A stretch of 64,000 nt of DNA from Eledone cirrhosa. Its lineage: Eukaryota. Location: assembly GCA_964016885.1 (NCBI GenBank), contig OZ024757.1, positions 37,386,001-37,450,000 of the forward strand. Direction: 5' to 3'. The notes below the pieces were generated by a model, which saw only the letters and a program-made list of their open reading frames with translations, was not told the DNA's origin and did no database searches. The stretch's first letter is position 1, and every line of letters begins with the position of its first letter. Positions 20,441 to 38,982 of the stretch are shown here, one piece after another. The position numbers and the translations under genes are program-made.

Positions 20441-20533
20441 CACTTATTACATATGTTTCATTGCTGATCAGCTCGAAGAACGATTGATTATGTTCGTTCC
20501 TGACTCTGGAATCAAAAGGTTGTCAGATATGTG
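20441..20533 (-). ncRNA. Degenerate hammerhead with extended stem II
   Basis: CACATAT-CTGACAA-..GATTCCAG AGTC AGGAACG..CGTTCTT CGAG CTGATC..-GAAA-CATATG-TA-ATAAGTG. Confidence 0.65.
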
Positions 20534-20548
20534 CTTTATATATATATA

Positions 20549-20950
20549 AGAGAAAAAAGAGAATCAGTGTTGTGACGAAAGGAATTTATTGGACATATTA
20601 CAATTGTTTCTCGGGCGACCAGCTGGAGGCACGATCGATATGGTGATCAAACCTGACTCTGAAATCACTCGGTCATCGGATACGTCTCGATTCTATGAAG
20701 CAGATTTTCCTATGCTTCGTAGAATTGAGACGTATCCGACGACCAAGTGATTTCAGAGTCAGGTTTGATCACCATATCAATCGTACCTCCAGCTGGTCGC
20801 CCGAGAAACAATTGTAATATGTCCAATAAATTCCTTTCATCGCAACACTGATTCTCTTTCTTCTCTGATATCATACTCTGCTCTACGAGGGCATTGAGTG
20901 CTCATATGGCCTACCGCATACGGACGCTTTAAGCATCCAACACCAATTAT
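20549..20950. mobile_element. PLE-derived fold-back (arms ~20549-20702 and ~20712-20866) with extended hammerhead
   Basis: long inverted repeat; + copy 20729-20823 GACGTAT-CCGACGA-long stem-GAAA-CAATTG-TA-ATATGTC. Confidence 0.75.
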
Positions 20951-21309
20951 ATCATCATCATTTCATTTTACATCTGCTTTTTCCCTGCTTGCAAGGGTGG
21001 GACGGGAACTGATTCTGGCTTGATTTCTACAGCTGGATGCCCTTCCTAACACCAACCTCATTTACAGTGAGTGGTGGCTGCTTTTTTGCCGTGGCACCTC
21101 CACGACCACTTTGCAGTGGCACCTCCACGACCACTTTGCAGTGGAATGATATGGACTCCACTCCTATCATCTCATTTCTACAGCTGAGTAAACTGGAGCA
21201 ATGTGAAATAAAGTGTCTTGCTCAAGGAAACAACCCATAACCCGGTCTGAGGATTGAACTCACGACCTTTCGATTGCAAGGCCAATGCTCTAACCACTAA
21301 GCCATGTGT
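20951..21309 (-). mobile_element. tRNA-derived SINE with RTE-type tail (internal 25-bp duplication)
   Basis: same family as 39338-39678; further copies 23690-23908, 31541-31860; related subfamily 7220-7447, 36035-36330. Confidence 0.88.
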
Positions 21310-21324
21310 CTATATATATATATA

Positions 21325-21600
21325 TTGTTATACTTTGGGAGGGTCTTGTTGCCAATAAGAAACACATGCACCAGTTGCTTTCACTTCAATTTATTATAAT
21401 AAATTTATAAATTTCCGGTTGGTTGGTTCCACAACCAGATGATTGTTTATATATTGTCAAAGTTCTTTCGTCACACATTCTTTGACCTCTTCAGTGACTG
21501 GGGATTCTTTTCTTTGTTTTTGTGCCTCTCCTTTGTTCTGTCCTACGCCATCTTGTTTTTGACACAAAAACAAGATGGCGTAGGACAGAACAAAGGAGAG
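21325..21600 (-). mobile_element. Short copy of the PLE 3' pseudo-LTR with inverted 5' end
   Basis: matches 10374-10630; terminal hairpin ctctcctttgttctgtcctacgccatcttgtttttg / caaaaacaagatggcgtaggacagaacaaaggagag. Confidence 0.85.
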
Positions 21601-35800: not shown

Positions 35801-37807
35801 TCAGTCTGTTTGCTTCTTACTCGAAGATGCGTTCATGAATGCGACATGTAAAGCAAATTTGTGTAATTCAAGTCTAAATTTCTGATAAACAAAAATATAA
35901 AAATCCACACACATTATAGCACATTATTTGCACAAAGTGAATATTTAATAAAAAAATTTTCAAGAGGCATTAAAGCGATTTCGTGGATTTCAAGTTTGCG
36001 AAAAAATGAAACAGACCGTATGTATCATCATAATCATCATCATCATCGTTTAACGTCTATCTTCCACGCTAGCATGGGTTAGACGGGAGTTGTCCCACTT
36101 GAGGCAAGATTGGTTGGGTGACAGTGTCTCGCTCGTATGGGACTATCTGGCAGGTTTTCTACAACTGGATGCCCTTTCTAACACCAACCACATTTACAGT
36201 GTGGACTGGGAACTTTTTATTGTGTTACCTACACGGCCACATTACAGCATGGACTCTGTTTTTTTTTTTGTTGTGACACCTACATGATCTCGATCTCATT
36301 ATCTCATTAGTTTGGACTGGATGTTGTGGTACCAACATAACTTTACAGAGAAAGGGTGGTGTTGTTGTTGTGTGTGTGTGTGTGTTGTTATTGGTGTTAT
36401 ATGTATTGTTATAGTTATAGTTGTTGTAGTGAGAGTAACAACAGTGTAATGTGTTATTGTTGTATGTGTTGTTATTGGTGTTATATGTATTGTTGTTATA
36501 GTTGTTCCGTTCCATTGCAGTGAGTTATGCCATAGAAAGCTCAACAGGAAATGACACCCCCCCTCCCTCTATCAGGATCAGGATCCAATGTTCCGTTGTT
36601 TACAAATATTGTATTAGAATAGCTAATTAATCTAATGTACACGCATACATACATACATACAATCATATACATATGTACACATACATATATATACATATAC
36701 AAATACACACATACATACATATTACCCATACATGCATTCATATATACATGCATACATACACATACGTGCACATACATACATACACACACTGACATATACA
36801 TACATACAATAACATATACAAATACATACATATGCATACACACATACACACATTATCTCTGTCTCTCTCTCCCTCTGTCTCCCTCCCTCCATCTCTCTCC
36901 CTCTGTCTCACTTCTCCCTCTCTGGCTCTCTCCCTGTCTCTCTCCCTCTGCCTCTCTCCCACTCTCTCACTTCTCCTTCTCTGTCTCTCTCCCACTCTCT
37001 CTGTCTCTATCCCACTCTCTCTCTCTCTCTCTCCTCAACTCTCTGTCTCCATGTATTTTCATTATCCCCCCCCCCATCACAGGTTGTGTTTATGCAAATA
37101 GGTTTAGCCTTTAGACCCTGATTCAGATTTTATTGTCATATACACACAACCACACGTACACATATATATATATAAACACACAACCACACACACACATACA
37201 TATATATATATATAAACACACAACCACACACACACATACATATATATAAACACACAACTACACATGCACACACACACACATATATATATACACACAACCA
37301 CGCACACATATCTATATATACACACACAATCACACACACATACATATATATATATATATATATATATATATATATATATATATATATACAGACAACCACA
37401 CACGTGCACATATATATATATACATACACACACACATATATATACACACACAAACACACACACACACACACACACACACATATATATATATATATATACA
37501 CACACAACCACATGCACACACATATATATATATACACACACACAGATACACACACACACACATATATATAGACACACGCAACCACATGCACACACACACA
37601 CACACACACACATATATATATATACACGCATATATCATCATCATCGTTTTCCGTCCATTCTTCCATGCTAGCATGGTGTGTGTATATATATATATATATA
37701 TACACACCATTGTGTCTCTGTAATGTATGGTGTGTATGCATGTGTGTATATATATATATATACATATTCTTGTGTGTAATGTATATGCATGTATTTGTGT
37801 GTGTATG

Positions 37808-38000
37808 TGTGTGTGATCTAGCTAGTGTGTGTATGTGTGTGTGATCTAGCTAGTGTGTGTGTGTGTGATCTAGCTAGTGTGTGTGTGTGTGTGTGATCTA
37901 GCTAGTGTGTGTATGTGTGTGATCTAGCTAGTGTGTGTGTGATCTAGCTAGTGTGTGTGTGTGTGATCTAGCTAGTGTGTGTGTGTGATCTAGCTAGTGT
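37808..38000. repeat. (GT)n punctuated by GATCTAGCTA, about 7 units
   Basis: direct reading. Confidence 0.85.
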
Positions 38001-38665
38001 GTATATATATGAAGCTGCGTGAGATTATAACTCTTTAGGAAATAATTGTATAGTTTTATAATTCTGGTTTATTGATTATTGATGACAGATCAATAATGTT
38101 GCCTCATTGATTTCTTTGATTTTCTGCAACTTACATCTTATACAACTGTGTGTGGATGTGGTGGCCATGTTGGAGGATAAAGAATTATGTCATCATCTTC
38201 ATTATCATCATCATCACCATCATCATCACCACCATCATCTTTATCATCATCATTGTCATCATCATTACCATCATCATCATTATCACCACCACCATCATCA
38301 TCATCATTTTCACCAGTACCACCATCATCATTACCACCGGTTATGTGTAATGTCCGTGTATATGTATGTATATATGTATGCGTGTGTGTGTGTAATGTGT
38401 GTACATGCATATATATGTGTGTTTGTGTGTATGTAATGTGCATGTATACATCTATTTGTGTTTGAGTGCGTGTGTGTGCTTTTCATAATTCACTTTAACC
38501 TTCTGGATTCTCTAGGCACCTTATAATAGAGTGATATCCCTTTAATACGTAATACAGTATCAAGGGAAATAATTCATAAAAACTTCTAGCATGCTAAAGG
38601 TTAAAAGACCCTTATGTTATGGAGAGAATATTTCTAAATTAATGTCTTTCTTGTCTCTTTTTTAG

Positions 38666-38738
38666 TTGTTGGGCTGGCCAACATGATAGAAGGCCCTCAA
38701 TGGCTGAAGTTGTGAACATAATGAATCAAGTATTTCAG
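38666..38738 (+). CDS. MAP3K7: TAK1/MAP3K7 exon (subdomain XI)
   Basis: polypyrimidine tract + tttag acceptor, CAG|gtaagt donor; 73 nt, phase-compatible; (S)CWAGQHDRRPSMAEVVNIMNQVFQ matches TAK1 [24 protein letters not shown]. Confidence 0.92.
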
Positions 38739-38895
38739 GTAAGTCATCATTAGATCTATATATATGTGTGTGTGTGGGTATATATATATATATATATATA
38801 TATGTGTGTGTGTGTCTGTATATATATATATATATATATATAGTGAAATAAAATAACAAGGACGATTGGTTACTCCTTCATTACGTTAATTGGTT

Positions 38896-38982
38896 GGTGA
38901 TGCGTGTTTCGCCACTGATCAGCTCAAGGTTCGATCTGTATTGATCTGACCCGACTCTGTAATCCGTGGCTCGTCAGACCCC
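38896..38982 (-). ncRNA. Hammerhead with intact core and extended stem II
   Basis: GGT-CTGACGA-GCCAC g GATTACAG AGTC GGG..CCT TGAG CTGATC a GTGGC-GAAA-CACGCA-TC-ACC. Confidence 0.75.

Follow-up and report, generated by a model that had tools for sequence, protein, structure and literature searches.

The window analysed here is a 64,000-nucleotide (nt) stretch of the Eledone cirrhosa genome (GenBank assembly GCA_964016885.1, contig OZ024757.1, positions 37,386,001 to 37,450,000 of the forward strand; positions below count from its first letter). It carries four type I hammerhead ribozymes with a stem II of 60 to 62 nt, at 20441-20533(-), 20592-20686(-), 20729-20823(+), and 38892-38984(-). All four share one layout, consisting of stem I, CUGANGA, the long stem II (hereafter the arm), GAAA, a short palindromic stem III, UH, and the closing strand of stem I. 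A first-pass annotation had placed hammerheads of Penelope-like elements here, with different stems I and III and a shared stem II pattern of about 60 nt, and we recovered all four copies with that arm and with stems I and III that differ among them. We report that the arm contains a nine-letter motif around a small internal loop that recurs in thousands of hammerheads of this genome.

The plus-strand copy belongs to family B. Its stem I (20729-35/20817-23) is followed by the core CCGACGA (20736-42, a U4C variant), stem II (20743-20804), GAAA (20805-08), and a palindromic stem III, with the cut predicted after 20816; the conserved motif spans 20756-20793, with G-AG-UC at 20756-60 and (G>C)A-G-C at 20790-93 around the variable apical hairpin. 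An AATAAA lies directly past stem I (20825-20830(+)), likely a poly(A) signal. This hammerhead is part of a 5'-truncated insertion (20713-20949(+), start approximate) that comprises the end of a terminal repeat and a full tail, with ACTCTG (20875-80) and CATYGAGTGCT (20892-902), both shared motifs, and an AC-rich end. Its inverted twin (20544-20712(-), junction with the plus copy approximate) ends in (TA)n and has a hammerhead at 20592-20686(-) with a predicted cut after 20599 and an A[AT]TAAA at 20585-20590(-). Copy A (20441-20533(-), family D2) has the core CTGACAA (20520-26), in which G8>A likely renders it dead, the motif at 20502-06 and 20471-74, and ATTAAA at 20435-20440(-). Copy C (38892-38984(-), family C) has the core CTGACGA (38971-77) and the motif at 38953-57 and 38922-25, and its insertion ends in (TA)n near 38842(-). 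Decay is evident in every copy: a poorly paired lower stem II besides G8>A in copy A, one broken stem III pair in copy C, and in B and its twin U4C together with a G>C inside the motif. A covariance model built without the window copies scores all four at 69 to 79 bits, with the next match in the window at 28.

The arm pattern of the first-pass annotation has 3,106 exact matches in the genome and none for a reversed control, and a looser pattern (hammerhead core plus GAT...RTC only) has 5,341 against 6 for the control. The arm was visible by eye in the 100 looser-pattern matches listed, a few of which had deletions. The element is also present in reads and contigs of independent DNA runs, where coverage is deepest over the terminal repeat and (TA)n follows each of two 3' ends; an assembly artefact is thereby excluded. 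Rfam scans gave no hammerhead match, whether at E up to 10, for 6 loci at the gathering threshold, or, in a further scan, among the 150 of 425 matches listed; no Rfam model covered the armed hammerheads in these scans. The motif is known from this one genome, and 37 pattern matches in a metagenome scan were rejected as chance because the best model score was 21.7 bits and no coherent stems were seen.

At least eight sequence families carry the arm. Clustering of 180 instances (two of them false) yielded families B, C, D (two types, including copy A), E, F, and G, while H and I surfaced in a motif-blind hammerhead search of fetched loci and were each confirmed with 20 loci; three degenerate copies suggest a further family J. 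Family H (L224-L243) has an extra A in its core (CTGAAAGA) in 20/20 loci, and its stem II has an A.C mismatch at the base, yet it returned 1,975 first-look candidates.

Upstream of family B, about 2 kilobases (kb) of shared non-coding DNA lead to a reading frame, and the 3' untranslated regions of B and H measure ∼1.8 to 2.3 kb. Among 20 loci picked by similarity to the frame end, 14 have an armed hammerhead 3' of the frame in the same orientation; the number with any armed copy rises to 17 when 5' or inverted repeats are counted. The family B protein contains DKT (DKTG in L098, L105, L110, and L114), a CxCX5C linker, CxxC..E..N..CxH, and a C-terminal endonuclease, with RMRWR, an RWK-like N-terminal motif, in L097 (family B only); the linker and endonuclease motifs are present in part in H, C, and I. 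The (TA)n targets, terminal repeats, and inverted 5'-truncated copies expected of such elements were all observed. By these motifs and targets, and under the definition in the available part of PMC8557442, the host is a Penelope-like retrotransposon of the Hydra clade, in line with the assignment to Penelope-like elements made at first pass. That definition also displaced an initial assignment to Nematis, and the Naiad clade was rejected on the C-terminal position of the endonuclease; Pfam gave nothing informative on three protein fragments.

The proteins linked to the other families are 43 to 69% identical to that of B, which bears out the claim that these are diverged families and not one uniform family. 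Identity to B is 45 to 53% over ∼90 amino acids for C, 65 to 69% for H (two loci), and 43 to 50% in two loci for I (35% in a short third). No reading frame could be firmly linked to D, E, F, G, or J; a link between F and the frame at L202 was rejected, as that frame is accompanied by a hammerhead of its own whose stem II measures 12 nt. A related family with a 12-nt stem II has a protein 34 to 39% identical to that of B. Protein trees of copies from this genome leave the status of the motif-bearing families as one clade unsupported either way (support of 31 to 32 in one tree and 55 to 79 in the other, in which the L197 tip joins two different elements and should be disregarded). Families D, E, and F have the tail motifs of B and C, and the tail arrangement ACTCTG...CATCGAGTGCT (20875-20902(+) in the window) is common to B, C, D, E, F, and H, flanking an insert whose length varies. 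Lying close to the point at which copying begins, these motifs are candidates for a second conserved structure. Pairing of the arm with ACTCTG was considered and rejected, the arm of family E having changed with no matching change in its tail (by eye).

We aligned 14 natural copies of B, C, D, G, H, and I with MAFFT, leaving out one B row and the four rows of E and F, which MAFFT had shifted by one column. Unaided, RNAalifold predicts for these sequences a lower stem of ∼6 base pairs (bp), then 6 bp with a bulge on the 5' side, then a 2x1 loop of AG or AA opposite G. Above the loop are a U-A and a C-G pair, an optional one-base bulge, 3 bp, and a variable hairpin (mostly GAUC/GAUC in B to G), for a predicted arm length of 57 to 63 nt. 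The conserved motif amounts to nine letters, 5'-G-AR-UC / GA-G-C-3'. The first-pass annotation had drawn a 4x4 internal loop, AGUC/YSAG, which gives way here to the 2x1 loop with UC and GA paired. The larger loop traces to a broken C-G pair in the window B copies. There the B copy and its twin read CCAG, the source of the C in YSAG, and this rare G>C opens the loop; genome-wide the opposite strand is GAG, with G at column 151 in 104 of 122 rows and gaps in 10. Nor does the proposed GATT..CTGRTC hold as a conserved pattern, since families H and I have other pairs there.

This fold is inferred from covariation and energy models. In the 14 sequences, 86.7% of 405 cells pair, compared with 72.9% after shuffling (0/500 shuffles as high) and 25 to 37% in slid controls. 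Five arm pairs are changed on both sides (G-C>A-U, A-U>G-C, C-G>U-A, A-U>G-C, and A-U>U-A), as the claim of a covarying arm had foreseen, while the U-A and C-G pairs above the loop are unchanged and paired in 14/14. For comparison, stem I, the open helix of the three, is 83% paired with 4/6 pairs changed on both sides, and both stem III pairs are invariant. A 19-row alignment that includes E and F pairs similarly (85.6%), and a model-fitted alignment of 135 matches (122 distinct) shows 90 to 93% pairing in the helices around the loop, a figure biased towards the model. With non-uniform divergence, covarying pairs, and no matching Rfam model, none of the three outcomes that the first-pass annotation had named as contrary to its claim was seen. 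We also considered a GATT/AGTC mini-hairpin with a pseudoknot and rejected it: it has no two-sided change, is broken in H and I, and was equalled by 500/500 shuffles.

The start codon is probably one found ∼150 nt beyond the cut, with in-frame stops ahead of it, and arm lengths differ between copies by non-multiples of three. Protein coding was therefore rejected as the cause of conservation, and the arm is taken to be non-coding.

Within stem II, conservation is concentrated in the nine letters. Over the 15 pairs formed by six families (one copy per family), identity is 0.96 in the motif against 0.29 after shuffling, and 0.37 in the lower stem II, 0.47 in stem I, 0.49 in the helix under the motif, and 0.47 in the apical part; the 120 nt upstream reach 0.38, against 0.39 shuffled. 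Between B and I the motif matches at 9/9 positions, with 0.31 in the apical part and 0.32 upstream. In the 14-sequence alignment, 7/9 motif columns are invariant, as is one other column of stem II. The position of the motif varies little: the loop G and GAAA are 12 nt apart in 157 of 164 copies taken from loci that had been selected by homology of the flank or of the whole element. Of the others, three have a different value and four had no motif call. Spacing on the 5' side is 13 to 15 nt and varies with the bulge. Unchanged letters in a covarying helix at a fixed distance from a core are the usual mark of a recognition site, and this distribution suggests that selection keeps the motif.

A neutral account would have the arm originate as a fold-back insertion, inherited or swapped between elements, in which selection asks only for any hairpin and the nine letters have simply not yet changed. 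Inverted fold-back junctions in 22/59 family B copies are compatible with such an origin, as are conflicts between helix types and the protein tree and the presence of other long rods in this genome. In 1.4 megabases of fetched loci we found 25 hammerhead candidates with a stem II of 40 to 105 nt and no motif call, some of them damaged armed copies, and at least six families of motif-free rods of 55 to 105 nt and unrelated sequence (L050, L169, and L317; L166 and L345; L240 and L217; also L291; L195 and L131; L180 and L129; and 39734-39817(-) in the window). The length of stem II alone is therefore not unique to the armed families, and the earlier remark that Penelope-like hammerheads are usually minimal agrees with the available parts of PMC4209133 and PMC8557442 but not with these rods. 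Under neutral persistence, nevertheless, nine letters must have outlasted complete turnover of the flanking helix, the apical hairpin, and the upstream DNA, and must have done so at a fixed spacing from the core, and we consider this account very improbable.

The armed hammerheads have the core CUGANGA...GAAA...UH with natural variants, and in many families the core appears weak, with U4C, an A after A6 (20/20 H copies), or C.A, A.A, or U.U at the base of stem II. The available text of PMC3088659 describes U4C and the A6a insertion as natural variants of low activity and suggests outside contacts as an offset, and Penelope-like hammerheads cut slowly in vitro (PMC4209133, in part). Downstream of the cut, A[AT]TAAA occurs at 6 to 13 nt in 128/152 armed copies, compared with 3/152 for an upstream control, and it is also found past 53/87 hammerheads that lack the motif; it probably serves as a poly(A) signal, in which case cleavage by the ribozyme would take off the tail.

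These features bear on the main rival to a protein-binding site, in which the loop would be a tertiary docking site within RNA that replaces the contact between loops 1 and 2 and rescues weak cores without protein, docking either on the strand leaving stem I (with its AAUAAA) or on the partner ribozyme of a dimer. The weak cores and the constant 12-nt spacing fit such a site, the stem III loops are palindromic and of dimer type, A[AT]TAAA lies at a regular distance past the cut, and distal contacts are a known source of speed for hammerheads (PMC3088659, in part). Set against this, known contacts lie ∼4 pairs up stem II in the available part of PMC4209133, not 12, constrained folds show no stem I partner loop conserved across families, the AAUAAA of family I is predicted to be paired, and the occurrence of A[AT]TAAA after motif-free hammerheads is a better fit to a poly(A) signal. 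On balance we regard tertiary docking as possible but doubtful.

The ends of copies speak to what happens to the RNA. The cut site is spanned by 87/97 family B copies (chosen by a motif 3' of the cut), and 5' ends within 1 nt of the cut number 0/97 in B and 2/49 in I, with no excess, so the copied RNA had either not been cut or been rejoined. In line with this, the available part of PMC11167929 reports that the Penelope hammerhead of the anole element cuts only with the element protein added and that uncut RNA is the main template.

The 5' ends of family B copies cluster ∼12 to 30 nt upstream of stem I (for example at ∼20713-20728 in the window). Copies that reach ∼-27 before stem I number 41/97 and those that reach ∼-75 number 12, and 39/97 end 100 to 119 nt before the cut, although some of these may reflect missing reference subfamilies. 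The pile-up is possibly a transcription start that gives rise to strong-stop-like copies. A start at this point would suit a further account that needs no cleavage, in which the arm acts near the transcript 5' end in the manner of the trans-activation response (TAR) element, or as promoter DNA in the terminal repeat, and a bound host factor controls transcription or the choice of poly(A) site. Transcripts start in the terminal repeat according to the available part of PMC6765202, and a host factor would explain a motif that stays constant despite protein divergence. A promoter element, however, has no need of two-sided pair changes or of a fixed distance to the core, the pile-up could equally be a reverse-transcriptase stop, and the start site is itself inferred; we consider this account unlikely.

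The reading we rank first, tentatively and at somewhat less than an even chance, is that the conserved 2x1 loop is a protein-binding site that gates the ribozyme and decides between cutting the RNA and keeping it intact as a template. We place it first on the strength of the slow-looking cores together with the anole-like uncut templates. Its observed basis is the copy number, the host element (B, C, H, and I), the non-coding position, the two-sided changes, the invariance of the nine letters, and their fixed spacing. The partner of the loop would be a protein, either the element's own reverse transcriptase-endonuclease or a host RNA-binding protein, and its binding would control cleavage. In the working model that we propose, reverse transcription would be primed by the element protein within the tail, 3' of the hammerhead, and would proceed through an uncut ribozyme. 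A protein seated on the loop, roughly one turn of helix from the core, would either hold the ribozyme off at this stage or help a weak core to fold at another. The more specific proposal, that a dedicated and so far undescribed RNA motif serves as a protein on/off switch, making this a natural protein-gated ribozyme that times cutting versus copying in a telomerase-related retrotransposon, seems doubtful to us.

Several observations weigh against a protein-binding site that gates the ribozyme. Between families the element proteins diverge by half and yet the motif is constant, an outcome that a host factor or an RNA-RNA contact would explain as well as the element's own protein. According to the available part of PMC11167929, insertion needs RNA only from a point 20 nt into the frame, at the start of stem II, which makes most of stem II dispensable there, and its authors locate protein binding within the first 172 nt of that frame. 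The motif is absent from other hammerhead families of this genome, and it was defined only after the families were seen. Every two-sided arm change comes from families H and I, which implies about five events and not many. RNAalifold lost the upper arm when the four shifted E and F rows were included, and folding z-scores of stem II in 13 copies are mixed (-4.5 and -4.2, but also +0.4, +0.5, and -0.1). The protein tree and the helix types disagree: H groups as the sister of B (98% support) but has an I-like helix, and the helix of C is B-like. Terminal repeats may have been exchanged, or changes may have converged, and repeat exchange may inflate the similarity among B to G.

The minimal Penelope hammerheads of PMC4209133 share with those described here the type I topology, the conserved core, the short palindromic stem III, the place in the terminal repeat, many truncated and inverted copies, and sequence families with covarying stems, but their helix II is 6 to 8 bp, and neither a long arm nor a conserved internal loop is described in the available part of that study. 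The Hydra clade of PMC8557442 likewise has DKT, CxCX5C, CxxC..E..N..CxH, a C-terminal endonuclease, (TA)n targets, and a hammerhead near the 3' end; all Hydra hammerheads listed in the available part, the octopus entry included, differ in having a stem II of 3 to 7 bp and a loop of 3 to 10 nt. The core-only search in that work allowed 7 to 17 nt between the core halves, and long-armed hammerheads such as these would be missed. It also reports "half cores" at 35 to 50 nt in Naiads and two spike-moss PLE-X entries with long loop 2 inserts, flagged as deviating. Four short motif strings did not find the arm in the available part of its supplement, in which matches split across lines could have escaped notice. 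The anole Poseidon element PAc (PMC11167929, in part) resembles the present one in having two 3' ends, with a tail that is optional and AC-rich at its end, and also in its AT-rich targets and its uncut RNA template. It differs in that its frame starts in stem II, whereas stem II here is non-coding and far longer, and in that help from the protein, putative here, was demonstrated there.

The loop itself does not fall into a familiar class. The bulged-G (sarcin-ricin or loop E) motif has the consensus AGUA/GAA with an invariant bulged G. The arm resembles it in AGU opposite GA and in a probable bulged purine, and departs from it in AGUC/GAG, with C-G in place of the sheared A.G, and in the AAUC of family H, which puts A at the bulged-G position; we therefore rejected membership. 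Loop A of the hairpin ribozyme has AGAA opposite NGUC, and selenocysteine insertion sequence (SECIS) elements and kink-turns have tandem 5'-GA/GA sheared pairs. Neither matches the arm, in which the opposite strand is GAG and U-A and C-G are paired in 14/14.

No such arm was found in literature searches or in the available parts of PMC7229834, PMC3088659, PMC6765202, or bioRxiv 10.64898/2026.07.22.740005, a comparison that lay outside figures, Repbase, and Dfam, where it may appear. The ribozyme and the transposon clade are both known, and the accessory motif of the arm appears to be real, selected, and undescribed. With more than 5,000 such ribozymes lacking a match in the present Rfam scans and lying beyond a spacer of 7 to 17 nt, counts of animal hammerheads may be too low, and long stems II would be a blind spot in hammerhead searches. 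If the more specific reading of a natural protein-gated ribozyme is right, a large class of long-armed hammerheads would have been missed in animal genomes because descriptors limit the length of stem II. For the role of Penelope-like hammerheads more broadly, a nine-letter motif at a fixed distance from the core offers a precise handle for distinguishing a protein partner from a tertiary contact.

The window contains further hammerheads and coding fragments. Four hammerheads with a stem II of ∼30 nt and a TATA stem III lack the motif (6541-6598(-), 6726-6784(+), 19451-19507(-), and 20023-20081(-)). Adjoining copy A, at ∼20300-20380(+), is a hammerhead-like motif with the core CCGATAGA and a possibly branched stem II, which is also present at L196, 278 nt past a reading frame. 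A protein-kinase fragment (908-1657(+)) and a frame with a zf-RVT domain of the long interspersed nuclear element (LINE) type (2060-3220(+)) lie near the start of the window. A 698-codon open frame at 11162-13255(-) encodes another Penelope-like reverse transcriptase with a weak RVT_1 match, which by its motifs we take to be Neptune-like.

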